A stretch of DNA of 64,000 bases. It comes from Glycera tridactyla (taxonomy: Eukaryota). Each line of letters opens with the position of its first letter. Within the stretch, counting starts at the first letter, position 1. The notes beneath the pieces were generated by a model. The model was not told the DNA's origin, searched no databases, and saw nothing but the letters and a program-made list of their open reading frames with translations. The stretch spans positions 72,106,001 through 72,170,000 of the forward strand of contig OZ286465.1 of the NCBI GenBank assembly GCA_965644265.1. Direction: 5' to 3'. Positions 464 through 33,938 of the stretch are shown in pieces. Position numbers and translations under genes: made by a program.

Positions 464-577
464 AATACACCAGGAGATTTGTGGGGTCGTGCAAATCTCA
501 AGCCAACAGGAGCAGTCTTTACACGGAGTGGGTTGCCAGCCCGCAAAGGCCGTGGAGGACAGGGTGGTGATGACGAG
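464..577 (+). CDS. Phase-0 cassette exon of the low-complexity insert (38 aa, NTPGDLWGRANLKPTGAVFTRSGLPARKGRGGQGGDDE)
   Basis: Acceptor tcatcctatag|aat and donor gacgag|gtatga; 114 nt and stop-free; ends in GDDE like the downstream insert exons. Not in the ORF track. Confidence 0.75.
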
Positions 578-2035
578 GTATGAACTACTGTGATTTTGAT
601 GATCAAAAATGATGCAGGCTTGTTAACCTCTGGGATCCTTGTATTATGCTGTCTTATTGAAGCTAACATGAAAGTCTTCTCCACATGAAAAATATGGAAT
701 TCGCTGACGCACTACTTCAGAAAGTATTGTCATAATATCTATTTGATTCTTAACTTACTCATGATTGTGCTCTTCAGAACTGTATTTTGAGATATAGAAC
801 ATTCTAATACATTTCACTGAAGAGAACGTCGATTCTCTTCAGATTGGATTTCTGCAAATTGAAAAATTGACTTGGTGGTGAAGGATTACATTTTTATCAC
901 TGTAACTTTTATGTTTTTTTCGCAAAAGTGGGGTTAGTCAGTAGTTATGGTTTCATAGTAGCAGTTGATTTCAGGGTGTAAGGAATTTTCCATAGCAGAT
1001 TTGAGAAAATTGAAGGATTCAGTGCTGTAGCCATAATGAAATGCATGCAAGTATTTTTGCTTTTTCTCTCAATACGATCTCACTTATGAATCAATCAGCT
1101 CCATAACTTGCTCATACTTTTTAGCACTTTCTGTTGCATGCAGATATCCCATTATAGATTGCCAAAACACAGATGAATACTGTATTATTCTAACTGCCAG
1201 TGCAAATGTAATATTTAGGATCTAATGAGTATCATGAATAAGACCTGAATTAGAGTCTGCCGGTCATAACAAGATCTTGCTATTGATGGAATTTGAGACA
1301 CAAAAAGCGAAGAAGTTCGCTGGTTTTGGATTCACATTCTTATCTTTCATGCTGATGAATAATTGCTATGATTTCATTTCTCTCACTTCATCCCATACGC
1401 AGCTGTAGTTGCCTTTGAACCAATTCACTTGTCATATGATTGCTTGGATTCACTGTTGGCCGGGCCTATGACTATTTGCCTATTGTTTTTAGTGCGGGTA
1501 TTGAAAATCAGCTGGACTGTATAGAAGGTGCAATTTCCATTCTGGCTTCAGGAAACTGTGGAAAATTTCATATAAAATACCAGTATGAAATGAAATGTTT
1601 TGATGAATGTTAGCATGAGCATTAAAGAATTGTAGTCTGTGAGATAGTTGGTGCATGGTAATTGGCCTATAAATCATCATGGGACATGATTTTAATTTGG
1701 AAGGTCATCTTTCTTGGCTGGAGAATTCATTATTAATCCCTCCAAACATATTATTCTCAGTTTCCAAGGATTCGGCCTGATTTCCCTATCAGCGAATTCA
1801 GATTCAATCCTACTTTCTCCAGCTGTCGGTTCATCCAGCCCTGAAGCTAGTATGATCTGCTCATCCAAAATCTTTTGCAATGTGAAGTGATTTTGGTGGT
1901 CTGGGTGGTGGTCTGCAGAATTCTATGTTTCAATGCACTGAACCACTTTGAAAGATAGAATTAGTGTGTCTTTTCTATCACTCTTTACTCACACTGAAGC
2001 TTAAATGTAAACTAATTGCTTTTCATCACTTCTAG

Positions 2036-5000
2036 ACTTCTCCGCATGATATTGATGGTGATGGCGAGTCCACTGGGAGACCAGGGAGTGGTGATGGTGT
2101 CAATAAAGACATTGGCGGTCATCCTCATAAGCAGGGTCATCTTGATTCTTATCCAGATTTACCAGAAGTGTTAGACACATCATTTGATTCCAATGATATC
2201 CCTGAGCCTACCAGGCTCCCTAGCAGTGTTGATGACTCACATGTTTCAAAGGAAAATATCAGTGGTGATGGCGTAGATATGAAATATGAAATGAAGCATC
2301 CAAGTAATTTGACAAAGGTTCCGGGAAAGTTAGGACCATTTCAAATAAAAGATGGGAGCAAAGAAGATCAAGGCAATCAAAGTAACAAAGCATCCAAACA
2401 TCTATACACACCTGATCTGCAAAATCTAAAAAAATCAGATGATCCATGGGGTAGGAAAAAGCTTCGTGCTGCAAAACCAACACAGCCCAGTGAACCTAGT
2501 AGTTTGAAAGGTCATCTCCTCGGGAGGGAAAATTTTCCTGGTGCACTTGGTCCAGGGAGAAGAGAAGAACATAATCTTCACGATCATCCTGCCCTCAGGG
2601 CCTCAGATCCACACAAATTATTTCCAGCAGATCGTGATGCTAGGGATAGCAATCCTTTAGGCCGAAGTGACAGAGCAGATCCCTGGGGCCCATGGGAGAG
2701 AGGAGGCACAGAAGGGGCCTCTGATCCATACAAAACATTTCCATCAGATTCTGATATCAGCGATAGAAGGGGTCCTTCAGGCCCAAGAAATAGTGCAGAC
2801 CCCAGTGCTCCTTGGGAGAACGGAGGGAAAGATGGGGCCTCTGAGCCACACAAAAAATTCCCATCAGCTTCTGATACCAGGGATAGAAGGGGTCCTTCAG
2901 GCCCAAAAGATAGTGCAGACCCCAGTGCAGCTTGGGAGAGAGGGGGCACAGAAGGGGCGTATGATCCTCACAAAATATTCCCAGCAGATCCTTATGATAG
3001 CAACCCTCTTGGCCCAACCAACAGAACAGATCCCACGGCCCCCTGGGAGAGAGGAGGCACAAAAGTAACCCCCTATTCACACAAACCATTTCCATCAGAT
3101 CCCGATATCAGGGATAGAATTAGCCCTTCAGGTCCAAGAGACAGAGCCGACTCAAGGGCCTCATGGGAGAGGGGAGGCACAAAGGGAGCCTCTGATCCAC
3201 AGAGAAGAGAACCAGCTGGTAATGATCTTGGGCGTGGAATAGCTTCTATATACTCAAGAGTAGATCGGGATCCTCATGGTCATGCCAAGATGTTGCATCC
3301 AGATGATCGCTTGAATGCTGCAAAGGACCCTGGTCTTCGTAGTCCTTCCTATCCTGACCAGGCAAAAGATCTGCTTGACTCTGGTAGTAGGCCAGCGGGT
3401 ACCATTGATCACAGTAAGATGTTAGATCATTCTACTCCACATGACAAAAGTTTGAAAAGTGGTCAAAGTCATCCCCATGGACCACATGGAAAAAGAGGTG
3501 ATATCAAACCCTTCGGCAAGAATGAGTTCCATAGCCCCAGTGAGAGAGAGGGGTTGGGTGGACCTCATGGTTCCAATGACAGATGGTATCCTGACGATCC
3601 CAATGATCCTGCTAGGAAACAGGTAGGTAGCCCTTTTGTTAGTGATAGGAAAGGACAGGATGGTACCTCTGAGAAGAGATCTGATGATCCACATTCACCT
3701 AGTAATCTAGATGATCAGTATCTCAAAAAGAGAGCTGATTTTGATGACTTATCACGCAATCCATGGGAACATGATGATGACCAGGAAAGCCACCCTGAAG
3801 ATCTGGGTGATTCTGATGGTTCACACTCACTCCCTACTTTACCCATGAGGCATCCTAGCGATTTCACCAGTCCCCATGAAAACAGGCAATCACGGGGCCC
3901 CAAAAAGGAATTAGAGCCCGGCAATTCAAGTAGCCCAGTGGGTAGCAGCACAGATGATAGCTATCATCCTAGCCAGACAGGTCAACCAGGTTTTACTTGT
4001 AGTCCAGGTGGAATGCATAAGCCAGATGACATTCTCCATGCTGATGGAGAGCTAGTTGATACTGATGAAAGTGATCTAGATGAAAATCGCAATCTTGGTC
4101 AGAGAAAACACTCAACAGTTAGAGTATCAACTGACTCTCATTCCAGTACAGTTACTAGTAGTGTACATGAACAAAGGACAACCAAACATCGACATGAGAG
4201 GCATGATGACCCTGATCTTTCAAATGAAGATGATCTTAATTTAGGTGATCCTTCGGGTCGAAAAAGACTTCATTTAACTGATGTACTAGGCCAAAGGAGT
4301 AAGAGACATTCTGATGATTTGTTCCCAGCTTGTGACAATGAAGAGTCAGATAGCATCAGCTCTGATCAAGAACTTATGGCACCTCATAGGAATTCGGAAG
4401 TAGCTCACCAAAGACCGAAGAGGATGAAGGGAAATGGTGATCCACACTCTCCCTATAAAGAAAAACGGCTGGATGATCCCAGCGGAAAAGTACATCAAGA
4501 CCACTCTGAAGAATATAGTGGGGAGGATGATACCCCAAATAGGTTTGGTCAAAATCAGATTTCTCAACCTTCTAGCAATCCTATGTCCATCGATGGCGAT
4601 GATGAGCAATGTCAAGGACATGATTTTCCAACAGGTATGATTGAATCTCGAAGAAATAATGATGAAGATCATTCTAAAATTGTGATCACCACTGAACATC
4701 ATTCTAGTTCAGTGTCTAAGAGTATCTTCGAACGAAGGACAAGCAGGCAAACAAATGAAAGATGGGATGATGATTTCATATCAGAGGAAGATAATTCATT
4801 GTCAGATGATCCTTCAGGTGGGAAGAGGCCTCACCCAACTGGCAAGCTAGTCCCTAGGAATAAAAGACCTCTTCATGGTCGCCAGGTTCCTGATGAATCT
4901 GGGGACTCTGATGGCCTCAACTCAGATGAATATAGATACACAACAGATTCACCAGCCACTAGAGATATACGACTGGGTCAGCCCAAACCCAAGAGGGCAA

Positions 5001-8000
5001 AGGGATCCGTTAATAAACACCAATCAGATGCTGAAGAAGAGGTGGGTTCCTTTGATGAAGAATATCCTGACCGACCAACCAAATCTGACCAAACAGCTAG
5101 ACCTCATAAGGGAAACGGTAGAAAAATTGGTATTAGGGATAATTTGGAAGATTGTGATGATTTGGAGGAAGCAGAATTCAGTGATGAATCTGATAGAATG
5201 CTTCCTGATGATGCTGCTACACGGATATCGCGTGTGACCACCGAGCATCATTCATATGAGAGCAAGAGCACAACTGAGCACAGAATAGGGGAACACTCTC
5301 ATCAAGCTAGAAGTAAGAGAAGAGGTTTGCATCCGTATAATTACTCAGATGTCCCCAGTGATACAGATTATACTGATGATCCTGAATGGGGAGGTAGTAC
5401 AGATACTCATCCACAAAGAAGAGCTATTTCAGGTGATCCTGATGACCAATATGGTACATATCCAGACTATTTAAATGGCTCAGGTTATAAGAGGAGACCA
5501 GGTATCACTGATGATCCTTCCATCAGTGATTATTCTGATGGAGGATATGGCCCTGGCTATAACCCTGCTCTGCATCAGTCAAGTGGCAAGGGTAAGAGGG
5601 CAGTCCCTGAGGGCCAAGGCCATGCTAGCCACCAAGATGAGGGAGCAGATATTCTGATGGATCAAGAATCTGATACTCATGGATTAGTCAGCAAGAGGGA
5701 TCTTCAAGATCATCATGCTGATTCTCAAGGTCGTGGAAGGCAAGATAAGCCCATTGACCCAGCTATGGCAGGTACACATGACTTGCCAGATGATCAACAT
5801 CATCCAGGAAGAAGACCTAATTCTGATGATGCAGATGACATGGCTTCACCATTTCATTATGCTCCTGCTGGGAAAAGACATACCATCGACCCTGAAGGGT
5901 CTGATTCTCATGGGTGGCCTGATGATCCAGAGTTAGGTCAAATGAGGGATCCAGGTGACACACACGATGATCCCCGTGATCCTGGTAAAGGACACAAGCC
6001 AAGCAGTCCCAATAGGAGAGGAGTTGATCCAATTGCTCATAAAAGAGGCACACAAGACTATCCTACTGACCCACATGAGGATTTGGAGGAAGCAGAATTC
6101 AGTGATGAATCTGATAGAATGCTTCCTGAAGATGCTGCCACACGGATATCGCGTGTGACCACCGAGCATCATTCATATGAGAGCAAGAGCACAACTGAGC
6201 ACAGAATAGAGAAACACTCTCATCAAGCTAGAGGTAAGAGAAGAGGTTTGCATCCGTATGATTACTCAGATGACCCCAGTGATACAGATTATACTGATGA
6301 TCCTGAATGGGGAGGTAGTACAGATACTCATCCACAAAGAAGAGCTATTTCAGGTGATCCTGATGACCAATATGGTACATATCCAGACTATTTAAATGGC
6401 TCAGATGATAAGAGGAGACCAGGTATCACTGATGATCCTTCCATCAGTGATTACTCTGATGGAGGATATGGCCCTGGCTATAACCCTGCTCTGCATCAGT
6501 CAAGTGGCAAGGGTAAGAGGGCAGTCCCTAAGGGCCAAGGCCATGCTAGCCACCAAGATGAGGGAGCAGATATTCTGATGGATCAAGAATCTGATACTCA
6601 TGGATTAGTCAGCAAGAGGGATCTTCAAGATCATCATGCTGATTCTCAAGGTCGTGGAAGGCAAGATAAGCCCATTGACCCAGCTATGGCAGGTACACAT
6701 GACTTGCCAGATGATCAACATCATCCAGGAAGAAGACCTAATTCTGATGATGCAGATGACATGGCTTCACCATTTCATTATGCTCCTGCTGGGAAAAGAC
6801 ATACCATCGACCCTGAAGGGTCTGATTCTCATGGGTGGCCTGATGATCCAGAGTTAGGTCAAATGAGGGATCCAGGTGACACACAAGATGATTCCCATGA
6901 TCCTGATAAAGGACACAAGCCAAGCAGTCCCCATGGGAGAGGAGTTTATCCACTTGCTCATAAAAGAGGCACACAAGACTATCCTACTGACCCACATGAG
7001 GATAGGAGTCATGGCTGGCCTGATGATCAGCATGATCCAGGGAGAAGGGACATTTCAGATGGAGATGGCGACCCAGGCAGTCCTTATAGGAAAAAAGGTG
7101 ACTCACAAGCTGTTGATCCTGATGCAGATGACAGCCATGGGTGGCCTGGTGATCAGCATCATCCAGGGAGAAGGGACTTTCCAGGTAGAGGAGGTGACCC
7201 AGGTAGCCGGCATAGTAGAAATAAGGATCCATATGCCATTGACCCTGAAGCGGATTATTCTGTTGACCCTGATGAGGATGAAACTGATCCTCATGCTACT
7301 GGTAAAGGAGGTAACCCCACAGATGGCCAAGACTATGCATTTGACCCTCATAATGATGATATTCATGGGTGGCCTGATGATTCAGTGTCAGGTAGAATGA
7401 GTGATCCAAGTGACACAAACGGAGGGTATCCACATGCTCGTGAAACAGATGGGCAAGACTATCCAATTGATACTGATGAGGATGATACCCTTGGTTGGCC
7501 CGATGATCGGCATCATCCAGGAAGAAGGGCCATTCCAGATAGAGGAGACCAGGGTAGTCCCCATATGAGGAAAAGGGGCCCTCGTGCTCATGGAACAGGT
7601 GGAAAAGGTGATCCAATCGACTCTCATGATGATGATATCGATGGGTGGCCTGATGATTCAGTGTCTGGTAGAGACCCAGATGACACACATGCCGATCCTC
7701 ATAGTCCTGTTAGAGAAGGTTACCCCACCAGACCCCATAAGAGAGGAGGGCACCCACATGCTCTCGGAACAGATAGGCATGATGATCCTATCGACCCTGA
7801 TGAGGATGATACTCATGGGTGGCCTGATGATCAGCATCATCCAGGGAGGAGGGGCGTTCCTGGTAGAGAAGGCAGTCCAGGCAGTCCTCATAGAAGAAAA
7901 AGAGATCCACATGCCATTGCTCTTGATCAGGATGATTCTCAAGGGTGGCCTGATGATCTAGTGTGGGGTCAAATGAGGGACCCAGGGGACACAAGCGCCA

Positions 8001-11000
8001 ATCCTAGTGGTTCTGGTAGGGGAGGTGACCCTGCCAGTCCTCAGAAGAAAGGAGGGTACCCACGTAGTCGAGAAACAGATGGGGAAGACTATCCTATAGA
8101 CCCTGATGAGAATGATATTCATGGGTGGCCTGATCGACATCATCCAGGAATTTCCGATAGGCGAGGTGACCCAGGTGGTCCTCATGGAAGAAAAGGGGAC
8201 CCACATGCTATTGATCCTGATGAAGGTGAAGCCGATCCTCATGCTCCTGGTAGAGGAGGTGACCCCACCAGTCCCCATAAGAGAGGTAGGTTCCCAGATG
8301 CTAATGAAATAGATTGTCAAGATGATCCTGATGAGGATGATTCTCAGGGGTGGCCTGACGATCCAGTGTTAGAAAGAATGAGGGACCCAGGTGACGCACA
8401 CGCTGATCCTTGTGGTCCTGGTAAAAGAGGTGACCCTACAAGCCCCCATATGAATGGAGGGTACCAACATAGTCCAGGAACAGATGGGGAGGACTATCCT
8501 ACAGACCCTGATGAGAATGATATTCATGGGAGGCCTAATGATCAGCATCATCCAGGAAGAAGGACCATTCCGGATAGGCAAGGTGACCCAGGTGGTCCTC
8601 ATGGAAGAAAATGGGACCCACATGATATTGACCCTGATGAGGATGAAACTGATCATTGTCCTGGTAGAGAAGGTGACCCCACCCGTCCCCATAAGAGAGG
8701 AGGGTTCCCTCATGCTCGTGAATTAGATGGTCAAGATGATACTGATGAGGATGATTCTCAGGGGTGGCCTGATGATCCAGTGTTAGGTAGAATGAGGGAT
8801 CCAGGTGACACACACTCAGATCCTCGTGGTCCTGGTAAAAGAGGTGACCCCACCAGTCATCGTAAAAAAGAAGGGCACCCACATAGTCGAGAAACAGTTG
8901 GGGAGGATGATCCTACAGACCCTGAAGAAAATGATATTCATGGGAGGCCTGATCAGCATCATCCAGGAAGAAGGACCAATCTGGATAGGCCAGGCGACCC
9001 AGATGGTCCTCATGGAAGAAAATGGGACCAACATGCTATTGACTTTGATGAGGATGAAGCTGATCATGGTCCTGGTGGAGGAGGTGACCCCAACAGTCCC
9101 CATAAGAGAGGAGGGTTCCCTCATGCTCGTGAAATAGATGGTCAGGATGATCCTATCGACCCTGATGAGGATGATACTCATGGGTGGCCTGATGATCAGC
9201 AGCATCCAGGGAGGAGGGGCATTCCTGGTAGAGAAGGTTACCCAGGCAGTCCTCATAGAAGAAAGGGGGATCCACATGCCATTGATCCTGATCAGGATGA
9301 TTCTCAAGGGTGGCCTGATGATCCAGTGTTGGGTAAAATGAGGGACCCAGGTGACACACACGCCGATCCTAGTGGTTCTGGTAGGGGAGGTGACCCTGCT
9401 AGTCCCCATAAGAACGGAGAGTACCCACGTAGTCGAGAAACGGATGGGGACGACTATCCTATAGACCCTGATGAGAATGATATTCATGGGTGGCCTGATC
9501 GACATCATCCAGGAAGATGGGCTATTCCAGATAGGCAAGGTGACCCAGGTGGTCCTCGTAGAAAGCAAGGGGACCCACATGCTATTGACCCTGATGAGGA
9601 TGAAGCTGATTGTCATAGTCCTGGTAGAGGAGGTGACCCCACCCATCCCAATAAGAGAGGAGGGTTCCCTCATGCTCGTGAATTAGATGGTCAAGATGAT
9701 ACTGATGAGGATGATTCTCAGGGGTGGCCTGATGATCCAGTGTTAGGTAGAATGAGGGACCCAGGTGACACACACACAGATTCTCGTGGTCCTGGTAAAA
9801 GAGGTGACCCCACCAATCCCCATAAAAAAGGAGGGTACCCACATAGTCGGGAAACAATTGGGGAGGATGATCCTACAGACCCTGATGAAAATGGTATTCA
9901 TGGGAGGCCTGATCAGCATCATCCAGGAAGAAGGACCATTCTGGATAGGCCAGGCGACCCAGATGGTCCTCATGGAAGAAGATGGGACCCTCATGCTATT
10001 GACCCTGATGAGGATGAAGCTGATCCTCATGGTCCTGGTAAAAGAGGTGACCCCACCAATCCCCTTAAAAAAGGTGGGTACCCACATAGTCGAGATACAG
10101 TTGGGGAGGACAATCCTACAGACCCCGATGAAAATGATATTCATGGAAGGCCTGATGATCAGCATCATCCAGGAAGAAGGACCATTCTGGATAGGCGAGG
10201 TGACCCAGATGGTCCTCATGGAAGAAAAGGGGACCCACATGCTATTGACCCTGATGGGGATGAAGCTGATCGTCATAGTCCTGGTGGAGGAGGTGACCCC
10301 ACCAGTCCCCATAAGAGAGGAGGGTTCCCTTATGCTCGTGAAAAAGATGGTCAAGATGATCCTATCGACCCTGATAAGGATGATACTCATGTGTGGCCTG
10401 ATGATATGCATCATCCAGGGAGGAGGGGCATTCCTGGTAAAGAAGGTTACCCAGGCAGTCCTCATAGAAGAAAAGGGGATCCACATGCCATTGATCCTGA
10501 TCAGGATGATTCTCAAGGGTGGCCTGATGATCCAGTGTTGGGTAAAATAAGGGACCCAGGTGACACACACGCCGATCCTTGTGGTTCTGGTAAAAGAGGT
10601 GACCCCAACAGTCCCCATAAGAAAGGAGGGTACCCAAATAGTCAAGATACAATTGGGGAGGATGATCCTACAGACCCTGATGAAAATGATATTAATGGGA
10701 GGCCTTCTGATCAGAATCATCCGGGAAGAAGGACCATTCCGGATAGGCGAGGTGACCCAGATGGTCCTCATGGAAGAAAATGGGACCCACGTGCTACTGA
10801 CCCTGATGGGGATGAAGTTGATCGTCATAGTCCTGGTGGAGGAGGTGACCCCAACAGTCCCCATAAGAGAGGAGGGTTCCCTCATGCTCCTGAAATAGAT
10901 GGTCAAGATGATACTGATGAGGATGATTCTCAGGGGTGGCCTGATGATCCAGTGTTAGGTAGAATGAGGGACACAGGTGACACACACTCAGATCCTCGTG

Positions 11001-14000
11001 GTCCTGGTAAAAGAGGTGACCCCACCAGTCCCCATAAAAAAGGAGGGTACCCACATAGTCGAGAAACAGTTGGGGAGGAAGATCCTACAGACCCCGATGA
11101 AAATGATATTCATGGGAGGCCTGATCAGCATCATCCAGGAAGAAGGACCATTCTGGATAGGCCAGGCGACCCAGATGGTCCTCATGGAAGAAGATGGGAC
11201 CCTCATGCTATTGACCCTGATGAGGATGAAGCTGATCCTCTTGGTTCTGGTAAAAGAGGGGACCCCACCAGTCCCCTTAAAAAAAGAGGATACCCACATA
11301 GTCGAGATACAGTTGGGGAGGATGATCCTACAGACCCTGATGAAAATGATCTTCATGGGAGGCCTTCTGATCAGCATCATCCAGGAAGAAGGACCATTCC
11401 AGATAGGCGAGGTGACCCAGATGGTCCTCATGGAAGAGAAGGGGACCCACATGCTATTGACCATGATGGGGATGAAGCTGATCATCATAGTCCTGGTAGA
11501 GAAGGTGACCCCACCAGTCCCCATAAGAGAGGGTTCCCTCATGCGCGTGAAATTGATGGTCAAGATGATCCTATCGACCCTGATGAGGATGATACTCATG
11601 GGTGGCCTGATGATCTGCATCATCCAGGTAGGAGGGGCATTCCTGGTAGAGAACGTTACCCAGGTAGTCCTCATAGAAGAAAAGGGGATCGACATGCCAT
11701 TGATCCTGATCAGGATGATTCTCAAGGGTGGCCTGATGATCCAGTGTCAGGTCAAATGAGGGATCCAGGTGACACACACGCCGATCCTAGTGGTTCTGGT
11801 AAAAGAGGTGACCCCACCAGTCCCCATAAAAAAGGAGGGTACCCACATGGTCTAGAAACAGATGGGGAAGACTATCCTACTGACCCTGATGAAGATGGTA
11901 TTCATGGGAGGCCTGATCAGCATCATCCAGAAAAGGGGGTTATTGCAGATCGGCGAGGGGACCCAGGTGGTCCTCATAGAAGAAAAGGGGACCCACATGC
12001 TATTGACCCCAATGAAGGTGAAGCTTATCCTCGTGATCCTAGTAGAGGAGATGACCCTAACAGTCCCAATAAGAGAGGAGGGTATCCACATGCTCATGAA
12101 ACAGATGGGCAAGACTATCCAACTGATCTTGATGGGGATGATAACTATGGTTGGCCTGATCATCAGCATCATCCAGGGAGGAGGGGCATTCCTGGTAGAG
12201 AAGGTTACCAAGGCAGTCCTCATAGAAGGAAAGGGGATCGACATGCTATCGATCCTGATCAGGATGATTCTCAAGGGTTGCCTGATGATCCAGTGTTGGG
12301 TCAAATGAGGGACCCAGGTGACTCACGCACCCATCCTTGTGGTTCTGGTGAAGGAGGTGACTCTACCAGTCCTCATATGAAAGGAGGGTACCCAGATAGT
12401 CAAGAAACAGATGCGGAAGCCTATCCTATAGACCCTGATGAGGATGATACTCATGGGTGGCCTGAAGATCAGCATCATCCGGGAAGAAGAAGCAATCCAG
12501 ATGGACGAGGTGACCCAGGTGGTCCTCATGGAAGAAAATGGGATCCACATGCTATTGACCCTGATGCCCGTGAAAAGGATGGGCAAGACTATCCTACAGA
12601 CCCTGATGAGGATAATATTCATGGGTATCCAGACCAAGGTTACCCAGATGGTCCTCATGGAAAAGGGGATCTACATGCCATTGACCCTGATGAGTATAGT
12701 ACTCATGGGTGGCCTGGTGATCAGCATCACCTAGGAAGAAGGACCATTCCAGATAGACGGGGTGACCCAAACGGTCCTCATAGAAGAAATGGGGATCCCC
12801 ATGCCATTGACCCTGATGAGGATGATACTCATGGGTGGCACGATGATCACTATCATCCCGAGAGAAGAGCATTAGGTAGAGAGAGGGACTCACAAGCTGA
12901 TCCCCATGGTCCTGGCTGGGGACATAACTCAGGCAGTCCCCATAGGAAAGGAACGGACCCACATGATCGTGAATCCTTCGGAACAGACCAACCTATTGAC
13001 CCTTATGTGGACGACAATCATGATTGGCCTAATGATCAGCATCATCCAGGGAGAAGAGCCATTCCAGATAGAGGAGGTGACCCAGGCATTCACTATAAGA
13101 GAAAAGGGGACCCACATGCAAGCCCTCGTGGAAGAAGAGCTGACCAAGGTACCTCTGATTCAGATGAGGGGAATCATCCATTTCATTCTTCCAAGCCTGA
13201 TACCATTGGTAGGCCACGTGGCCTGGGCACAGTTGGACCATATGGTGCTGACAGCCATGGTCCTTATGGCAGGGACTCTGATAGCACTCATACATCAAAT
13301 GCCAGTGATTATGCTGATGACAATTATGGCCCTGATGACATAGGGAGTCGAAGCTATCAAAATGATTGTCCTGGCCAGAGAGGTTCTATTGGTCCAGAAT
13401 ACCATTCAGGAAGTCCTGACGGCTATCTCAATCATGGGGATAGAAGGCCTTCAAAAAGTCAACCCTATTCTGAAGACATTTCTGGAGATTCAGACAATCC
13501 TGGGTTTGGACACTATGGCAACTCCAGGCCTAGCAAAAGAAAAACATACCATCCAAGTCAAAAAAGACACCAATCTGATCCACATAGACCTCGTGAAACA
13601 GAGAGCTCTGTTGATCCCTATGACTCCAGCAGTAGTGGAGGGCCAGGAAGTTGGACTGATCATGGTGGGAGACACCATCCGAGTAAGCACGGTGGCTCAG
13701 GTCATCAAGGTGGAGGGCCTGACAGGCCTAGTGGTAGGCAAGGTAGAGCACGTCCTAGTTTTGATTCTATCCCAGATAGTCCGTTTTTCCCATTTGGCTC
13801 AATGTTCTCAAATTGGCCACATGATCCTAGACCACTTGGTAATTCTGAACGAACTTACAGTCCAGGGAATCTTCCATGCATCCTCTGTGGTCGTGGGGGT
13901 CCAATTACACCATGCAGAATTTGTGGTGTAGGTGGACACAGTGAGCAGTTCTGCCCCCAAAGTCTCGATGGAAATGACACATCTTATGGACCTAGCCTCA

Positions 14001-17000
14001 GTGATCACAGCTCTTTTGGAAGAAGAGGCCCTCGTGTTTCATTCCCATCAGAAGGGTTCAGCTCTCCAACTAGCCCCAATTTTGGCCCTCATGCTTTTCT
14101 GTCTAGCCATAGAAAGCGTGGTGATGGTCCTCACATAAGTTCACTCAATCCTAGTTTGAGTGGGAGTGAGCCATTCCTGAACTATCCTACATACGATGAT
14201 TCCCGGAATCGAGGTGGTGGAACCAACCCACGTGATCCACGTGATAGTTATGACAGCAGAGTTTTTGATGACCATCCTGGGAAACGTCCACCGCGTAGAG
14301 GAAGTCAGGAATTTGGTGGTAGAAGATCTAACCATCATGTGCCAGCAAATAGAAGGCATGATGACTTGTATGACCCTCCTGGCAGAAATATTTCTGGTGA
14401 GAACCAGGACCCGATGGGTGAACAACCTGGCCAGAGGTATCCATATGATCAAAGTGATGAAAGGCCTCGAGGCACCCAATTTGATCCACGTCATGCACAT
14501 GGTTCAGATGATATGCCTCGTCATGAGAGGGATACCAAGCCCAGAAAAAGTGTAGATTTTCAGGAACCCCAAAGTAACAGGAGAGCACCAGAAGCTGAAC
14601 ATGATATCGATAAGAGAAGGTATCCTGGAGCTTCATGTAGAAAAGGCATTGTGGGAAGTGATGCAAGTCTGGATGATCAGTCTTCCAAAGAAGTTGAGAG
14701 AGGCGCAAATGATGATGATGACTCTGATTCTACACACCCTGACAATATATATGAGCAACAAGTCAGGAGATCACCCCATAGTAAACATGGTGCAAGTAGT
14801 ATGGGTGACCATGGTGGCCCATCTGAATCATGTCAGCCTAGTGGGGACAATGATTATCCTGAGTCATATGGTCGGAGAGATGACCCTGAAATGCATTGCA
14901 GTACAAAAGATGGCAAAGATCTTCTGGATGATGGTGGTCCTCATGTAGCAGATAGGTGGAGGGATGCTGATTACCCAGATTCCATGCAAAATAAAGATCC
15001 TTCTAACAGGTATCCGGACAGTACCTCATATGATCAAGAGGTGAATGAGAGGGACGAGGAAGGTGATCATGAGGTTCAATTTGATTTTAGTGGCAACCCT
15101 GGTAAATTATATGGACAAGATGGGTGTGACAGCGATGATCGATATTTTGCAGGAAACAAAGGTGCCAGTGGTATATCTGACCCTTATAGAGAGCCACATG
15201 ATATTTTTGGCCCAGATAGTACAAAACCAAGCCACAAGAGAGAATCAAGACCTCATAGAATCAGCAGCAAAACCTCACTCCCCAATGTTTCATCACAAGG
15301 GTATGAACCAGGCAGCAAATGTACAGGTGATCACTCTGGCTCAGGTGTCCGAAGGAATGATCCACATGGCCAGTCTCAGAGAAGTCCAGTAGATTTCTCT
15401 GGTGACCATTACACATATGAGCCATGTATGCCACATGCTAGTCATGATTCTGCAGTCACTGAAAGCAGTGGTTCTCCTGGTGATTCACCTATACCCTATA
15501 TGAAGCAGCCTCTTGATAATCAGCATGGAACAGGAATTGATCGCCTGGTAGGCAGGGAAGAACCAAGTAGATTGTATGATACAAAGGAAAGTATGGGTGA
15601 TGCAGATGTAGATGCAGATATTGCTAAAAATGTTGAGCCTGGTTATGACAACTGTCCACCCATGAGTACAGGTGAAGGTACCAAACCAGTATCAGCTGGC
15701 CAATATGGTCTCTGTATTGGCATTATTGGGAGCAATGATCAGCAAACTGATTGCAGTGAGAATACAGGGCAAGACATTGATGATAATCATTCTGATATGA
15801 AAAGTGATGATGAATTCCCATGTGGGCCTGTGGGGAGGGATGAGAGGAGAGGGAAGAATAGAAATAGGGTGGGCCAAGATTCCAAGGATGGCCTTGCCCC
15901 TGACTTTGATACTACTGAGGCAGGAGTCCCATCTAAAAGACTAACAAGCAGGGAACCACAGAAACAGGATGAGGACAGTAGTAGGACTGATGGCCTGCCT
16001 GACCCTAGTGCTGAACCGAACTTTCCTAATTCACGTCGAATGGATCAGTATGGTGATGATCCATGTGAGCCGAGACCTGGCCATGATCAGGATAGTGAAG
16101 CTGGTACTGACGCCACAAATGATAATGATGGCCAAGGTGATCCGGTTGACATTCAAAGGTTAGGTCGTGTTCTTGAAGATCCTAATAGTTGTGCTAGAAT
16201 AGACAGATCTCCATACTCAGTAACAGGACCTCTTCCTGATACTGAAAACGATAAGTCATTACTAGACAGACATGAGGCAGGGAAAAATATGGGAGTACCA
16301 ACAGGTGATTCGCACCATAAAAATACAAAAAATGATGAAGATTCCCGAAGCAATACTCCTGTTTCTACCCCTGGTGGTGATGCAGACAAGGGGAGCATGG
16401 TGAATCCATTTGACCTGAGTAAAATTATACGTAGTGAAGATCTTCTTGGTGGCAGGAAGGCCCTCAAGAGATTAGGTGAATCAAGTCAGCCCGATCTCAC
16501 TTCAGGTAGGAAACATATGCCTCAGTCGCACAACAATGGCCTTTATGACTACACAAGTACTGATGATAGCATTGCTGATCCTGATGACCCATTTGTTCAC
16601 CTTGGTTTGCGATCCCCAGAGACCCACAGGAGGAAGCCATTTGGTCGAAAAACACCTCCAGCCAAGGATATTGGCAGATCCCCATCACTCATTCCAAGTG
16701 ATGGAGTAGTCAAAGATCAGCAGCAGGCAGTAGCTCATCAAGCATTGCTGAATGACTTGAATGCAATTTTCAAACAAGTGAGAAAGCCAGAAGACCGAAA
16801 AGATTTACGTCGTCCAAGTAGCCTTGCGAATGATAATGTGCAGATCAGGCGCCCTGCTGATAGGGAATTTAACCGGCCACTTTCTTTCCCTCCACTCAGT
16901 GCATCTGCAAAAGATAATAGTGAATCTGAGGCTGAAGACAATGGTAAGAATATTGCCCAAGATATTGCAAAAAAGCTGCAGAGTATTCTTGCACGTACAA

Positions 17001-17269
17001 AGCCAGATACCGACTCTATTTCCTCAGTAAGTCAGCAACATATAAATATGCCTGGCCAGTCTGGAAATTCAGGGAAATCTCAAAAACATGCTCCAATTAT
17101 TGATGATCCTGTTCCAAAGTCACAAAATAATCTTCTAGAAGATATTGAACCTGACGACTCAGTCAAGGAAGATGACCTTGGTAATGTTGATCACCGCCAT
17201 AGTCTCAAAGGGACACCAGGTGGTTTGGGAGGTGATGGTGATAATCATTTTGGACCTGGAACTGCGAAG
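2036..17269 (+). CDS. Giant 15,234-nt (5,078-codon) phase-0 exon encoding a D/P/G/H/R/S-rich repetitive disordered region; probable filamin insert exon
   Basis: ORF 2168..17275 (5035 aa) stays open 44 codons upstream to acceptor tttcatcacttctag|act (2035/2036). It ends at donor gcgaag|gtatga (17269/17270), two codons before the ORF stop. Length is a multiple of 3. Confidence 0.85.
2599..3200 (+). repeat. Five ~120-bp (37-40 aa) diverged coding repeats ending in WE(R/N)GG
   Basis: GASDPHKLFP...PWERGGTE / GASDPYKTFP...PWENGGKD and three further copies are visible in the translation. Confidence 0.85.
5159..7003 (+). repeat. Near-identical 921-bp (307-aa) tandem duplication inside the giant exon
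   Basis: tttggaggaagcagaattc at 5161 and 6082; ccacatgagg at 6071 and 6992; both offsets are 921. Confidence 0.92.
7000..13100 (+). repeat. Coding repeat array (GWPDD/QHHPGRR/GDPxSPH/DPDE modules) with higher-order periodicity
   Basis: Anchor gatgattctca (DDSQG) occurs at 7931, 8336, 8750, 9296, 9710, 10505, 10922, 11714 and 12263. Confidence 0.9.
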
Positions 17270-17702
17270 GTATGACAACAATTTATTATTGCATATCCAT
17301 ATACTTCACAAAAGATATGATATGAGGATAGGGGTCATGGATATGTATTGGTTAACTAGATATTCATGAAGTCACACATCATTTGTGCCTCATTAGTCAG
17401 ACTTATTTCAACTGACACCAAAACAAGGAGTCAATTCATCAGCACAACCAAGAGTGCTGGGAATCTAATATAATATAGGATGTCTTACTGCTCAAGGCTC
17501 AATATTCATTTATGTTGGTGTTTTTTGACCGATTTTAGTGAAGGCTAAATTTCATGTAAATGTTTTTGGCAGTCGATTGAAATTTGTCTTGCATTTATGG
17601 CATGCAGTAACTTTTCTTCACTAGTTTGAGAATATCATGTTTATTCTTGAGCCCGCCTCAACAAATCATTCTGTTATAGTGCATGATTTAACTTATTTAT
17701 AG

Positions 17703-18428
17703 TATGGTCCTGATGGCAAACCGATTCATGGAGTTGGATATGGACCAGATGGTTCTCCACAGGGAAAGCAGGAGAGTAGTGGCTTGCTTGGATCTAATGG
17801 ACAGAGAGTCAATAGAAGGAGAAAAGATGGGCATGGCAATCATTGTGAGGAGGAGGATGTGAAGGGCATAGATGTGGATGATGATGGAATACCTACACCA
17901 GATGTTCAGAGATATGACTTCAGGTCACCTGGCAATGATGGTGTACAAGGACAAGATCGAGTTGGAGGTCGTAAAGTACTCGGCCATGGTGAAGATGGTA
18001 ACATTGAATCAGATTATAGGAGAGGCAACCAAATGGGGAAAGATGGTGAATTTGGAGTAGATGGCAGTAAGCATGGCCAAGGAAGGAATGAGATGTATGA
18101 TGAGGATGCAGACTCAGGACCAGATGAACAGGCAGGCCATGGCAAGGACGGGCCTAGATCCAAGAGATATGGACTAGATCATCTGAAGCCTGGTCAAGCT
18201 GGAGATGATGAAGGATATGAGCCAGATGGGCTAAGATCTAAACCCAGAAGCCCCAGAAATGACAACTATGGAGCTAACGGCGAGAGATCCCGACATGATC
18301 ATGATGATGATGAGGTAATTTCGTCAAATGAAGAAAAGTACCTTGGGCAGCAACCGGATATTAGTGGTGATCGAGATACAAAGCAACAAGATGGTACAGG
18401 AGGAGGGCATCATCAAAAAAATGATAAG
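17703..18428 (+). CDS. Phase-0 insert exon (242 aa, YGPDGKPIHGVGYGPDG...HHQKNDK); alternative in-frame donor at 18314
   Basis: Acceptor ttatttatag|tat, in frame with ORF 17784..18521. Donors gag|gtaatt (18314) and aag|gtacat (18428). Same G/D/R-rich composition as neighbouring exons. Confidence 0.75.
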
Positions 18429-18605
18429 GTACATCTTCATCTGATTCACGGAACTTTTATATTACTTCCAGTAAATCGCAGTCTTAATTGTCAATGTTTC
18501 ATGAATCGATCTAAAAGATGAGTCTTGTGTATTCTGAATGTCTTAATTATCACTTTTTCATTTACGCCGTTGGAAGAAGCAATATTTACCACATTATTTC
18601 TGCAG

Positions 18606-18731
18606 TTTGATCTACATGGACGTCACAGGAAGGACAAACATACTTCTGAAGAGGGTGAAGAGGATGACTATTCTGGTGATAATGTGGCTGGAGCAGAGAG
18701 CCCAAGTCATCATGGTGGTGATGATGCCGAG
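18606..18731 (+). CDS. Phase-0 insert exon (42 aa, FDLHGRHRKDKH...HHGGDDAE)
   Basis: Acceptor ttatttctgcag|ttt and donor gccgag|gtactt; 126 nt within ORF 18525..18791. Confidence 0.75.
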
Positions 18732-20534
18732 GTACTTCAAAGATTGTGCTTATCAATAGCAACCATGGTAATAGATTTAACATGGACATGAGTGCATATC
18801 ACATGGTCGATCACCTACTTACGATACACAATCTGACATTTCACATAGATGTCACATAATGCTATGTCCATGGCTATGTGCTTGGCAAAGGTCATGGATG
18901 GTGCTGCATAGCAACCACATTTAATCCAGTCAATCAATATCTTCATCTGGGATCCTTACCCTCAAAACCCTTTTAGATATGAATGGAACCTATGGTATAC
19001 ATGGAACTAATATCGTCACATATCCTCCAAATGCACACCAAATCCATTGGATTCACAAATTGAATAAGGAATCATATGCCACTGCTTGAATTCCCCAGCA
19101 TCAGTTGTGATGTAGTTTTATCCCTCACGGACTATCTCTTGTGTTCATATCATGATACCACCTTGCCATATGGGTGCCATACCTATTGTCATACCTTGCA
19201 GTGCTTCGCATATTAGGATGCTATGGTCATGTGGAGAAGTGGATAATCAACATCTAATTTGTGGCTGACATTTCTTGTTAGTACTATATTCAAGAAATGG
19301 TTCTAGGGCTATATGTACAGAGAATAGGAGTAGGGTGAGGATGTGAATTAACATATGTGGTTGGGATTGGAGAGAAAACCCGAGGATCAGATTTGTACCT
19401 TGGTACTTGGCAACATATAATATCATCAATTTCATTGTGAAGTGAAATTTGAAAGGTATTGCCATTACAGGTAGGGTGATGATGAAGCAGTCAAGGCAAT
19501 GATATTTGTTTCATGGGAATTCGAGGGTGCAGTCACTGATGACAAGATATGAGATGGTCAGTATCCTTGATAATTGGGAACATGAATGGATTTTTCGATA
19601 TCGTACAACAGCAACTCTGTATGTTCACTAATATATTTCAATTTCCAAGTGTATTCCAAATAAAAAAGTTGTGGCAAGAGGAAAAGGTCCATCAATCTAG
19701 TGATTGAAACGATGAAGTGATGAGGTGGAGATGGCAAAATGTCTGCCTATGACTCAAAGCTATCGATTCCTGGTGACAGGTGTTTGATGAACTGCTTTCG
19801 CTTCTACTAATACTCCTATGCTACAACAAGGCATACCTTCAGCTATGCAATCCCATGCCACATTACATATGTTCCCATCATGTTTGGTGAGTATTTTCCA
19901 GATGTGTCATGGACATTCATAATTTTGCTTGAATGACTTGAGTTATTTTAATATTTTATACTTGTGAGATCTTGGGAATTTGTTAGAAAATGAGCAGATC
20001 CTATTGCATGAAATCCACGAAATCTTAATGGAGCTAATAAACAAATGAATATCAGGTTAGGTGGTGTTAACATTTCAAGCCTTGAATTCATGAGTAAATC
20101 ATGCTAAGCAGCTTGAATTGTATAGGACTACAATATGCTCCATAAGGCACAATGAACAAACCTTATTGTGTGTAATTTGGGAACATGAATGACTTGGAAT
20201 AACTTCCATCCACATTAGTTGGAGGTTCTATCTTGAGCCGGTATTCAGCATATCTGTAACATAGTTGGGGATTGATTGTGTACATCATGTACAGTATTTG
20301 GTGATCTTGTTAGTTCTATATGGGTAGGTGGCTGACCATTCATCAAAAGAAAATGAGTTTGAATGCATCACAAATGAGATATGATGTTTTACATACTCAC
20401 ATAGGGATGAAAGTCCCAAGGATTGTGGCATGTTATGATCCTCCTCAATATATACTGAGAACCTTGCCATTCCTATGTTGTCATCCTGTATTCAACCTAG
20501 TATAACATGAACAAATGAATCATTGCATGTCTAG

Positions 20535-20606
20535 ATTGGACCAGATGGACGCCATCGACATGGACGTGGAGGAAGATTAGGGGATGGTGATCATGATGGC
20601 GATGAG
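20535..20606 (+). CDS. Phase-0 insert mini-exon (24 aa, IGPDGRHRHGRGGRLGDGDHDGDE)
   Basis: Acceptor tgtctag|att and donor gatgag|gtataa; 72 nt; resembles one unit of the 24.8-27.5 kb repeat. Confidence 0.75.
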
Positions 20607-21200: not shown

Positions 21201-21290
21201 TATGACTCGGAAGGCCAGCCAAGATATGGTGATGGAGATGGTGATAGGCGTAGGGGTCGGCGGAGGCCACAAGATGACTTGGGTGATGAG
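21201..21290 (+). CDS. Phase-0 insert mini-exon (30 aa, YDSEGQPRYGDGDGDRRRGRRRPQDDLGDE)
   Basis: Acceptor ctctcttccatttag|tat and donor gatgag|gtacca; 90 nt, stop-free. Confidence 0.75.
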
Positions 21291-21695: not shown

Positions 21696-23053
21696 AAGTG
21701 TGTGAAATAGGTGGGTGAAGTATGGTTGGCGCTAAATTTTCGCAATCTTGTTAATCCCATGCATGCATGGTGGAGGGATCAGCCGAATGCATTTAGTGCG
21801 AAAACATGATTTTGTAGATAAAAGTGCAAGGATTATTGCTGCCTTTGGAAAGTGATAGAGATGACTTCATCGAAAGGATACAATCTCACAGGTATGTCTG
21901 TGGATTGTCGACAATTTGTCAACATGGTCATAAGCAGAACAGAAGATTGTGACAATCTGCTACAATTGTCAGTCAGCAGAACCTGTCCCTCATCTGCAGC
22001 CATATTATACATGCCTGCTGACTGTTATCAGTCATCTTTGGATTGCTAGGAATTTAGAGCTCTTGGCTTTGCTGCTCTAAGTATTGAAATACTATCATAC
22101 TTGAATATATCTTAGGATTTCAAATGTATCCTAGTATCCACGAGTATCAAGGCATACATAACAATCACAGAACTTTGCATTTTGTGCAAAACATCCAAGA
22201 TGGATAATCTGGGAATACCATTTTCTATCACAAAAAACAATATGTGATTACTTGTATGATTCATTTCAGCATGTCAGCAGTCTGTCTTGCACCTTTATCT
22301 TTTATCAAGAGAATGTTATTGCTGGGGATTTCAGTTACATCATTTCTGGATATATATTCTAGAAGGTGATTGTAACTACACAGGCAGGCACAGAAATATA
22401 GACAGGTGTCCTTTACATGAAAGTGGTGCATATGATCCTAAATGGTTTGTTGCTGTGAGATGTCAGAAAGTAATTATTCTTGATTGTGTGACTGCTTCAG
22501 ACCTCTTGATATATTCAAACCACTTCATTTATAGAATTTGTTTCATTTCGTTGCTGTAGGAGTGCATTCGCTCTCATTCATAACTCCCAACTTCTACATA
22601 TATCTGTAGTGCTAACATATGGTGTGGTGGTTTTATTGCCAAATCATTTTTGTAATAGTCTTTTCCGGCTGTAAAATGATTTTGACTTTTTTCTGTGATC
22701 TTAATTTTCACGAATGAGGGAGAACCGGCTTGTAGCAGAGTCAAACTTGTTTTAAGCATGAGGGACTTGGTGGAGCTGTGTGCTAATAGGGTGTCCCTGC
22801 TTAGTACAAATCAGTTAAAGTGATATTTGCTGTGTTTGGATGATTTCAACCTGTATGTTAGCACAAGTTGTGGTTTGAACAAGTTTGAGCCAACCTATTT
22901 TTATTCTGTAAGGCATATGCCGATGAACTGTCTGCTTGCTCTTATGCTTTTTTAACAATCTTTGATGACTTCTTACACTAGTCTGGCCAAGATGATCAGA
23001 GGGTTTCACATGCAAGAAAACCAGGCACTCATTATGGACATTCATCAAATCAG

Positions 23054-23827
23054 AAAGTGGGGAAAGATCTTGTAGATGATGCTGAAATGAATGATGAAAC
23101 TGCTGGTTCTCCAGTACATGGACTAAAAAGACCAAACCATGATGATGCCAATGTTGATGAACCAGGAGTAAGAAGTCAATATGATAATGACCGATCTGGG
23201 AGAGGACTTGTTGGTAGGAGAGATGGGAGTAATGGGAATTCAGATCCAAGTAGAAGCAAGTACTCCAGTGGGGAAGATAATGTCGATGAAGGTACTAAAG
23301 ATGCCAGGAAGGAATATGGTGATAGTGATCCAAGCATGTCTATAGGACATATTGGAGAGGGAGCGTTATCTGAACATGGAAAACCAGATGATCACAAAAA
23401 CAAATATGACACAGAGGGTAGTAGTGATGGAGAGGGAAATGCTGACAGAGATGGAAAGAAACACAATTATGGACACAGGGGTACATTAAGTGATGATAAG
23501 GAAAATCGACATCATGGAGATATAGACATTGGTGATGAAGATTATGAATATGGCTCTGGTGGGAGAAGGGCTAAACTTCGTCACAGTCACCCAGATTCAT
23601 CAGATGATCAAATTGCATCTGATCCGACCTTGCATGGTAACAATAACGGAAGTGATCCAAGAGGTGGAAGGAGCCATCCACCATATGGCCCCAAAGACCA
23701 GAAATTCGGTTCCAATGGCCAGCAGCCTCCTGGTAGACTTGGACGTGATGACGATGACTTAGATCCAAATGGTGGAGGGTTGTTTGGAAAGGACAGGCAG
23801 CTTAACAGTCCAGATGAGCATCTGGAG
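23054..23827 (+). CDS. Phase-0 insert exon (258 aa, D/G/H/S-rich)
   Basis: Acceptor catcaaatcag|aaa, in frame with ORF 23057..23866; donor ctggag|gtaatt; 774 nt. Confidence 0.75.
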
Positions 23828-24776: not shown

Positions 24777-27467
24777 TATGGACGGGATGACGATCCTGGC
24801 AGAGGAAGTGGAAGCGATGATGAATTTGGACAGCACAGAGGAAAAGGAGATAATGATCTGGATAAATACGGACCAGACGGACAAAGAATGGGAAGAGGGA
24901 AAGGTGGAAGGGGTGGAAGTGGACATGGGGGAGATGGAGATGATGATGAATATGGACCAGATGGTAAAAAGAGGGGTAGAGGAGGGCCAGGAGGAGATGG
25001 CGATGATGGATATGGACCAGATGGCAGACTTAGGGGTAGAGGAGGGCCTGGGGGAGATGGAGATGATGATGAATATGGACCGGATGGAAAGAGAAGGGGT
25101 AGAGGAGGGCCTGGAGGAGATGATGACGAATATGGACCGGATGGAAGGAGAAGGGGTAGAGGAGGGCCCGGGGGAGATGGGGATGATGATGAATATGGAC
25201 CGGATGGAAGACGAAGAGGTAGAGGAGGACCTGGGGGAGATGGAGATGATGATGAATATGAATATGGACCAGATGGAAGACAAAGAGGTAGAGGAGGACC
25301 TGGGGGAGATGAAGATGATGACGAATATGGACCAGATGGTAAAAGGAGGGGTAGAGGAGGGCCCAGAGAAGATGGGGATGATGATGAATATGGCCCAGAT
25401 GGTAGACAAAGAGGTAGAGGAGGACCTGGGGGAGACGGAGATGATGACTATGGACCAGATGGGAGACGGAGAGGTAGAGGAGGACGTGGGGGAGATGGAG
25501 ATGATGAGTATGGACCAGGTGGAAGAAGGAGGGGTAGAGGAGGGCCTGGGGGAGATGAAGATGATGATGATGAGTATGGACCAGATGGAAGAAGGAGGGG
25601 TAGAGGAGGGCCCGGGGGAGATGGAGATGATGATGACTATGGACCAGATGGGAGGCGAAGGGGTAGAGGAGGGCCTGGGAGAGATGGAGATGATGATGAA
25701 TATGGACCAGATGGAAAGAGGAGGGGTAGAGGAGGGCCTGGGGGAGATGGAGATAATGATGAGTATGGACCAGGTGGAAGAAGGAGGGGTAGAGGAGGAC
25801 CTGGGGGAGATGGAGATGATGATGAATATGGACCGGATGGAAAGAGGAGGGGTAGAGGAGGGCCTGGGGGAGATGGAGATAATGATGAGTATGGACCAGG
25901 TGGAAGAAGGAGGGGTAGAGGAGGACCTGGGGGAGATGGAGATGATGATGATGTGTATGGACGGGATGGGAGACAAAAGGGTAGAGGAGGACCCGGGGGA
26001 GATGGCGATGATGATGAATATGGACCAGATGGGAGACGAAGAGGTAGAGGAGGGCCTGGAGGAGATGGAGATGATGATGAATATGGACCAGGTGGAAGAC
26101 AAAGAGGTAGAGGAGGACCTGGGGGAGATGAAGATGATGATGAATATGGACCAGATGGGAGACGAAAAGGTAGAGGAGGACCTGAGGGAGATGGAGATGA
26201 TGAATATGGACCAGATGGGAAGAGGAGGGGTAGAGGAGGGCCTGGAGGAGATGGAGATGATGATGGATATGGACCAGATGGAAGAAGGAAGGGTAGAGGA
26301 GGGCTTGGGGGAGATGGAGATGATGATGAATATGGACCGGATGGAAAGAGGAGGGGTAGAGGAGGGCCTGGGGGAGATGGAGATAATGATGAGTATGGAC
26401 CAGGTGGAAAAAGGAGGGGTAGAGGAGGACCTGGGGGAGATGGAGATGATGATGATGATGTGTATGGACGGGATGGGAGACAAAAGGGTAGAGGAGGACC
26501 CGGGGAAGATGGAGATGATGATGAATATGGACCAGATGGGAGACGAAGAGGTAGAGGAGGGCCTAGAGGAGATGAAGATGATGATGAATATGGACCAGGT
26601 GGAAGACAAAGAGGTAGAGGAGGACCCGGGGGAGATGAAGATGATGATGAATATGGACCAGATGGGAGACGAAGAGGTAGAGGAGGACCCGGGGGAGATG
26701 AAGATGATGATGAATATGGACCAGATGGGAGACGAAGGGGTAGAGGAGGGCCTGGAGGAGATGGGGATGATGATGAATATGGACCAGATGGTAGACGGAG
26801 GGGTAGAGGAGGACGTGGGGTAGATGGAGAGGATGATGAATATGGACCGGATGGAAGACGAAGAGGTAGAAGAGGGCCCGGGGGAGATGGAGAGAATGAT
26901 GAATATGGACCAGATGGGAGACGAAGAGGTAGAGGAGGGCCTGGGGGAGATGGTGATGACGAGTATGGACCGGATGGGAGGCGAAGGGGTAGAGGAGGGC
27001 CTGGAGGAGATGATGATGATGATGATGAATATGGACCAGATGGGAGACGAAGGGGTAGAGGAGGACCTGGGGGAGATGGAGATGATGATGAATATGGACG
27101 AGATGGAAGAAGGAAAGGTAGAGGAGGGCACGCGGGAGATGGCGATGGTGATGAATATGGACCGGATGGAAGACGAAGAGGTAGAAGAGGGCCTGGGGGC
27201 GATGGAGATGATGACGAATATGGACCAGATGGGAGTCGAAGGGGTAGAAGAGGACCTGAGGGAGATGGTGATAATGATAAATATGGACCAGATGGCAAGA
27301 GGAGGGGCAGACATGGCAAAGATAAATTTGGACCTGATGGACGCCGGATTGGTGGACATGATGGATCAGAGGACAGTGATGGAGACTATGATCCAGATGG
27401 TGAACTCGGTCCAGATGGCCAGCCTCTAAAAGGCAGAGGGGGAAGGAGAGGTGACAGGGATTTAGAG
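24777..27467 (+). CDS. Phase-0 insert exon (897 aa) built from ~37 tandem copies of YGPDGRRRGRGGPGGDGDDDE
   Basis: Acceptor catttctatcag|tat and donor ttagag|gtacaa; 2,691 nt within ORF 24669..27512; all length variants between repeat units are multiples of 3. Confidence 0.85.
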
Positions 27468-33644: not shown

Positions 33645-33902
33645 GTGATTGCCACTGGACCTGGTTTGGAGAAGCAGGGTGTCACCGTCAACAAATGGGC
33701 CGAGTTCTCGATCGATGCACGCCGTGCCGGAAAGGCGCCACTCTCGGTGAAGTGCATGGATGCTGAATACAATCCTGTGGATGTGATTGTCAAGGACAAC
33801 CATGATGGGACCTACTGGTGCCAGTACATGCCCACCAAGAACATCAAGCACACCATCACCATCACATGGGGCAACGTCTCCATCCCCAACAGCCCCTTCA
33901 GG
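33645..33902 (+). CDS. FLNA: Filamin exon: Ig-like repeat equivalent to FLNA Ig5 (VIATGPGLEKQGVTVNKWAEF...SIPNSPFR)
   Basis: Acceptor ttcttttctgtgcag|gtg (phase 0) and donor agg|gtcagt. Close match to recalled FLNA VKARGPGLEKTGVAVNKPAEF...KHTAMVSWGGVSIPNSPFR. Confidence 0.95.
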
Positions 33903-33938
33903 GTCAGTCCATTTTCTGATTTATTCCAACTTTTCAAG

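Follow-up and report, generated by a model that had tools for sequence, protein, structure and literature searches.

What does a zinc knuckle do inside a filamin? The question is raised by a 64,000-nucleotide stretch of DNA from Glycera tridactyla (contig OZ286465.1, positions 72,106,001 to 72,170,000; termed the window), for which an initial annotation had reported a CX2CX4HX4C motif and an additional CxxC within a giant exon assigned to a filamin. It had proposed that the motif, together with the RGG exon, marks an RNA-binding or condensate-anchoring isoform, or that it is a captured retroelement fragment.

The filamin gene and its giant insert

Filamins are described as an actin-binding domain followed by Ig repeats with short hinges. 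Assignment of the locus to this family was borne out by tblastn, which revealed a calponin-homology actin-binding domain and an Ig-repeat rod in 34 exon matches comprising about 2,500 aligned residues, with 59-63% identity to mollusc filamins; PF00630 matches flank the insert on both sides. The actin-binding domain and four Ig repeats lie upstream of the window at a distance of 7-39 kb; position 33645 marks where the remaining filamin exons start. In a quick tree of 17 rows, the gene grouped with four other sequences and fell within neither the gastropods nor the bivalves, as would suit a spiralian belonging to neither group. It is the main filamin (FLNA/cheerio type) of G. tridactyla. Further filamin-repeat clusters were found at G000:C34:18.36-18.48 Mb and G000:C18:90.75-90.78 Mb; they likely represent other filamin-like genes.

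The insert is located between Ig4 and Ig5, numbered after a gastropod filamin. It begins upstream of the window with two phase-0 exons of 9 and 29 codons (L018:759-785 and 3940-4026) that have AG..GT ends. Within the window, phase-0 cassette exons follow on the + strand at 464-577 (38 aa; joints into the exon in 4/4 runs), 2036-17269 (the giant exon), 17703-18428 (242 aa; GT..AG joints), 18606-18731 (42 aa) and 20535-20606 (24 aa; for both, GT..AG joints in 4/4 runs), and 21201-21290 (30 aa). The last of these is entered by a joint, and a loose end after 21290 matches 24777, the start of the RGG exon, in two of the four runs. This RGG/acidic repeat exon (24777-27467, +) encodes 897 aa with 37 RGG and is net acidic (174 K/R vs. 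246 D/E); its predicted joint to 33645 is phase-compatible. A candidate acidic exon or exon part lies at 22982-23827 (+), where a loose end at 23827 in one run suggests a donor leading to the RGG exon. The constitutive rod resumes with the filamin Ig5 exon at 33645-33908 (+), identified by tblastn. The insert exons of 9, 29, 38, 5,078, 242, 42, 24, 30, and 897 codons, all bounded by AG..GT, add up to 6,389 codons; with the ~2,500 constitutive residues the longest form, assembled piecewise from the joints of separate contigs, would come near 9,000 residues.

Viewed as a whole, the insert between Ig4 and Ig5 consists of nine or more phase-0 cassette exons arranged like a ladder, with ~6,400 residues and several skipping patterns, which may make this tunable giant filamin a more striking finding than its knuckle. 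Two other regions attracted attention. An Asp-rich exon or exon end at L018:6054-6161 provides a donor to the 464-577 exon in 4/4 runs and may be an alternative start for forms lacking the actin-binding domain. At 47322-47633, in the intron after the filamin exon at 45545-45799, an acidic frame of 103 codons (with HVYENIPG and HIYQCID) is a possible second alternative hinge exon.

Transcripts were analyzed as contigs of four runs from two studies; none of the listed runs is recorded as RNA, and their spliced nature rests on GT..AG joints. Two organism labels among the runs share the same alleles and do not amount to a cross-species comparison. The knuckle is present in spliced RNA, being covered by spliced contigs in 4/4 runs from both studies, and there are also forms from which the giant exon, or the insert as a whole, is missing. 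One contig covers the sequence between 13000 and the donor at 17269, knuckle included; the joint from 17269 to 17703 was found in three of the four runs. Beyond 17703, joints link the small exons, and the beginning of the RGG exon is recognized in loose ends of contigs. On the upstream side, the Ig4 exon is followed by small exons joined in series, the last of them at 464-577. The same Ig4 exon is joined directly to Ig5, skipping the whole insert, in 4/4 runs, and a joint from 577 to 20535, skipping the giant exon, is listed for 3/4 runs.

At the 5' end of the giant exon, splicing is only indicated, in one of the four runs, by a record beginning at the acceptor and bearing 18 unaligned letters there. 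The other evidence at this end consists of contigs from three of the four runs that continue without a joint 170-560 nt past the acceptor at 2036 into the upstream intron (1245-2035). Since the frame opens exactly at this acceptor and runs for 81 codons before an in-frame ATG is reached, and since about 20 ATGs further upstream begin short frames, splicing at 2036 in libraries that also contain unspliced RNA is favoured, and an alternative first exon upstream of 2036 is less likely. Elsewhere, between 21509 and 24600, intron coverage continues from ~21500 through the frame at 22982-23827, pointing either to an internal start before the RGG exon or to RNA left unspliced over a long stretch.

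The giant exon comprises 15 kb with AG..GT ends and an open frame of 5,078 codons; the surrounding stop-free frame spans 2036-17275 (+). Its product is rich in D, G, P, S, R, and H, net acidic (635 K/R vs. 1,026 D/E), contains 19 RGG and 28 cysteines among 5,078 residues, and is predicted from this composition to be disordered. Self-similarity identified an array of tandem repeats at 5155-13119 (+). Neighbouring repeat units showed dN/dS values of 0.39-0.73 (about 0.55), and a recent 307-residue duplicate differed by 2 synonymous and 17 nonsynonymous changes. Among the within-species differences listed for 13000-17269, 13 of 16 were nonsynonymous and 3 synonymous (P = 0.3-0.5 vs. no constraint). 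Judged by these allele differences, the sequence around the knuckle drifts nearly neutrally; none of the listed differences affects the motif, where ~0.3 would be expected, and one run was letter-identical across the knuckle. Because of the dN/dS between repeat units together with the allele differences, the giant exon looks translated and loosely constrained.

Two further features of this exon are recorded here. The repeat array is rich in His, Asp, Pro, and Gly with recurring GWPDD and HHPGRR motifs and might bind metal ions. Near the exon end (16361-17000), three short amphipathic-helix-like stretches (~16390, 16730, and 16955) are candidate binding motifs; a search with these stretches gave no Pfam or Atlas match.

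The knuckle motif and its probable upstream half-copy

Translation confirmed the CX2CX4HX4C motif CRICGVGGHSEQFC at 13913-13954 (+), in frame within 2036-17275. Including the following residue it reads CRICGVGGHSEQFCP (13913-13957, +; exon residues 3960-3974), which matches the full consensus C-x2-C-G-x2-G-H-x4-C-P with Gly, Gly, and Pro all present; these three positions are invariant in an alignment with four knuckle proteins. The additional CxxC, within CILCG starting at 13877, was likewise confirmed, and both lie in the stop-free context ...NLPCILCGRGGPITPCRICGVGGHSEQFCPQS... The motif had been placed right after the repeat array; in fact it is separated from the array end at 13119 by 758 nt (~250 residues). 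The locally hydrophobic island seen around it proved to be the most hydrophobic of all 31-residue windows of the exon, with a Kyte-Doolittle value of 0.23 at the knuckle as compared to a mean of -1.59.

The spacing of the motif is non-random. CX2CX4HX4C occurs once in the six frames of the window, namely at the knuckle, and the only further match, across 204 kb of the locus, falls in a single simple repeat rich in Cys. From composition, the expected number of four-ligand motifs ranges from 5.5e-5 for the whole exon to 1.6e-4 for the local 200 aa; the expectation falls to 8e-7 to 3e-6 (~1e-6) with the two consensus glycines and to ~1e-7 with the proline. Shuffling yielded the strict motif in 0/3,000 cases for the whole exon, 1/20,000 for its C-terminal part, and 1/20,000 for the local sequence. 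A loosely defined finger arose in 1,177 of 20,000 shuffles (6%); hence, only the strict spacing is informative.

A Pfam scan, initially proposed as a check for zf-CCHC, did not list that family and returned zf-CCHC_4 only, at 12-16.6 bits and thus under the gathering cut-off of 27. In the Atlas, zf-CCHC clusters came nearest (score 0.90, 154 features), which we take as a lead only. The best matches of a PDB sequence search were the knuckles of TUT4/7 (E 0.003-0.04); beta-arrestin matches (E ≥ 0.14) were dismissed as the ligands are not kept. AlphaFold models of the knuckle region were of low confidence, with a mean pLDDT of 45 for the sequence alone and of 48 when a 5-row alignment was supplied (59 for the knuckle block), and a Foldseek search with these low-confidence models gave no match at E ≤ 0.001. 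The motif is likely to be a real zinc-folded knuckle.

The additional CxxC belongs to a half-knuckle, PCILCGRGGPIT, at 13874-13909 (+). Of its 36 nt, 21 are identical to those at the corresponding positions of the 36 nt that follow, as compared to a background mean of 11.2 (sd 2.9), and therefore it is likely a tandem copy of the first half of the knuckle, the second CxxC having probably arisen via this 36-nt duplication. Only 5 of 1,334 windows reached 21 matches, three of these at the half-knuckle itself. Half-copy and knuckle both retain Pro, both Cys, and three Gly, and their variable codons differ; dS was 1.2 and dN 0.34, determined from only ten codons with little power.

Proposed protein docking and the competing readings

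The leading reading, although a tentative one, is in our view a knob folded by zinc that docks a protein partner and is situated in a giant disordered spacer. Three cysteines and one histidine would bind one Zn2+ and thereby fold ~18 residues. Alternative splicing would insert the very long, acidic, predicted-disordered spacer between Ig4 and Ig5, and exon inclusion would convert a filamin of ~2,500 residues into one of up to ~9,000 residues. The actin-binding end would hang on an extensible tether, separated from the remaining rod, and the knuckle would be the one rigid knob near the end of this tether and its most order-prone patch. It may fix the tether to a partner or to another part of the filamin, comparable to CLIP-170, whose knuckles engage CAP-Gly domains and LIS1. 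With the extra CxxC, the metal site may be larger.

A protein is more likely than RNA as the ligand. The alternative, that the knuckle binds single-stranded RNA and together with the RG/RGG tracts anchors RNA granules on actin, is unlikely in our view. Its spacing is common to the knuckles of nucleocapsid, Lin28, and TUT4/7, RGG are found both in the giant exon and, in larger number, in the downstream exon, and among the TUT4 knuckles one has Arg after the first Cys and another Ser after the His. Here, Arg-Ile follows the first Cys and Ser-Glu follows the His, so that no aromatic residue occurs at the pocket positions, the exact guanine-pocket positions being, as we assume, those after the first Cys and after the His. 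Lin28 knuckles, on the other hand, grip guanines between Tyr/His and His/Met side chains and by backbone hydrogen bonds (PMC3759924), and no pocket residues of this Tyr/His/Met type are present. Furthermore, the knuckle is the single complete one, its net charge amounts to 0 to -2 over flanks of 10-100 residues (-1 over ±15), both long exons are net acidic, and the RGG exon is 1,443 residues away.

Pocket residues, basic flanks, and tandem copies, which characterize the nucleic-acid-binding knuckles of nucleocapsid, Lin28, and CNBP, are thus all absent. Within the same genome, the top-scoring knuckles (14 distinct, 30 loci), a set biased toward the Pfam consensus, included 9 with a pocket aromatic and 11 with basic character, and 0/14 lacked both. 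RNA binding, and with it the proposed RNA-binding or condensate isoform, is therefore unsupported, the knuckle being single, its pocket without an aromatic residue and its flanks at a charge of 0 to -2. The side chains nevertheless leave the RNA question unsettled, because the base contacts of Lin28 come partly from backbone groups (PMC3759924).

More far-reaching versions of these ideas would make the protein a filamin of ~1 MDa with a tunable tether of 6,400 residues, in which the knuckle serves as an RNA-binding anchor between actin and RNA granules or, with the second CxxC, as a zinc clasp of both chains acting as a metal- or redox-switched brake; we regard this picture, too, as doubtful.

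A functionless chance motif with a small duplication in a fast-evolving disordered exon is improbable. Very many windows were scanned, so that events of 1e-4 will appear; moreover, loose fingers are frequent among shuffles and the allele differences look neutral. Against this stand the expectations of ~1e-6 with the glycines and ~1e-7 with the proline, and the coincidence of the motif with the most hydrophobic window of the exon.

More improbable again is that the two CxxC form another metal site, either a Cys4 ribbon in one chain or a zinc bridge across the filamin dimer, which would act as a zinc- or redox-sensitive clasp. Five Cys within 26 residues (P ~0.003) would fit such a site, as would the preservation of the ligand codons in both CxxC-G units next to diverged variable codons. 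However, the His and the last Cys match the CCHC spacing exactly, tandem duplication alone explains the first CxxC, and the divergence was estimated from too few codons to carry much weight.

Least probable of all is a functionless piece of LINE ORF1 or of a retroelement gag that was taken up by a permissive exon. In favour of this, knuckle-bearing elements abound in the genome (12,740 zf-CCHC candidates, 150 of them scored), the top Atlas clusters have a viral record (with the phylum known for only one member each) and the exon tolerates amino-acid change. Against it, the 501 nt at 13650-14150 are single-copy in the genome, a protein search gave no match better than E 1.3, flank scores were negative against 14 + 27 same-genome knuckle contexts (top-scoring candidates only), the exon parts scanned contain no other retroelement domain, and four intact ligands with both glycines are unlikely in a neutral relic of such age that its donor can no longer be recognised. 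The closest knuckle core, 9/14 identical, belongs to a fungal protein that shares no flank. Capture from an element, the second origin suggested initially, is possible but unsupported, because there is neither a further DNA copy in the genome nor similarity of the flanks to those 14 + 27 contexts.

Relation to known systems and significance

Relatives of the insert or the knuckle were sought in several collections, which yielded no ortholog. A word search with exon residues 3890-4060 against proteins of 2,793-8,889 aa gave 0/132 candidates, and phmmer against 1.84 billion representatives gave seven matches, none below 1e-10, consisting of four unrelated multi-knuckle proteins and three without the motif. 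A metagenome scan gave 0/335 stretches. The Ig4 exon occurs at 143 metagenome loci; in 80 of these, most of them with little downstream DNA, there was no insert homolog and no knuckle on the + strand. An Atlas search with the last 328 residues of the exon gave no usable match. The earlier statement that such a knuckle is no known filamin feature holds: CX2CX4HX4C was found in 0/189 proteins from filamin searches (up to 5,000 residues, below the size of the giant isoform), and titles and abstract starts in the literature, with subscription papers mostly outside this scope, describe neither a filamin zinc knuckle nor such an insert. The novelty consists of known parts, namely a filamin, an alternative disordered insert, and a zinc knuckle, in unusual size and combination.

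With regard to the motif, the knuckles of nucleocapsid, Lin28, and TUT4/7 (zf-CCHC, zf-CCHC_4) share CX2CX4HX4C with Gly, Gly, and Pro, and the sequence match to TUT4/7 is weak. The knuckle described here differs by its single copy with an orphan CxxC, by the lack of an aromatic pocket and of basic character, and by its occurrence in a cytoskeletal protein. For the docking reading, CLIP-170 provides the likeness of protein-binding knuckles in a cytoskeletal linker, an analogy and not a homolog. The His spacing of the CLIP-170 knuckles is different from that of the knuckle in the filamin insert; CLIP-170 also belongs to the microtubule system and carries two knuckles at its chain end. These C-terminal CCHC-type knuckles are reported to bind p150Glued, LIS1, and the protein's own N-terminus (PMC2172020).

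With regard to the insert, the closest likeness of a long alternative disordered linker exon in an actin-associated scaffold is exon 15e of Drosophila Zasp52, which encodes 1,475 aa and stabilises Zasp52 at Z-discs (PMC13521563). It differs in that the protein is another one, the exon is 1,475 as compared to 5,078 aa long, its function was demonstrated in flight muscle, and it is not known to contain a knuckle. Several isoform size classes are reported for fly filamin (PMC5521747). Filamin models of Ciona and Branchiostoma contain inserts of 620-945 aa between Ig repeats, much shorter than the one found here, and the Ciona models have either a 775-aa insert after four Ig or a leader of 1,300-1,720 residues before the first Ig. 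None of these inserts shows sequence similarity to the Glycera insert or contains a CCHC or a CxxC. In the named mollusc, amphioxus, and vertebrate filamins with a placeable junction, the Ig4/Ig5 linker comprises 2-3 residues. As a separate observation, the number of Ig repeats amounts to 30-45 in filamin models of molluscs and cnidarians; the Glycera gene, by contrast, leaves its rod at ~2,500 residues, and its extra length comes from a disordered insert.

The size of the insert and the presence of the knuckle would be surprising to filamin specialists. If the motif is lineage-specific and unconserved, it would be a curiosity of one fast-evolving exon. If the docking reading is true, up to ~6,400 extra residues at the Ig4/Ig5 junction together with a zinc module would make this filamin a length-tunable tether with its own docking site.
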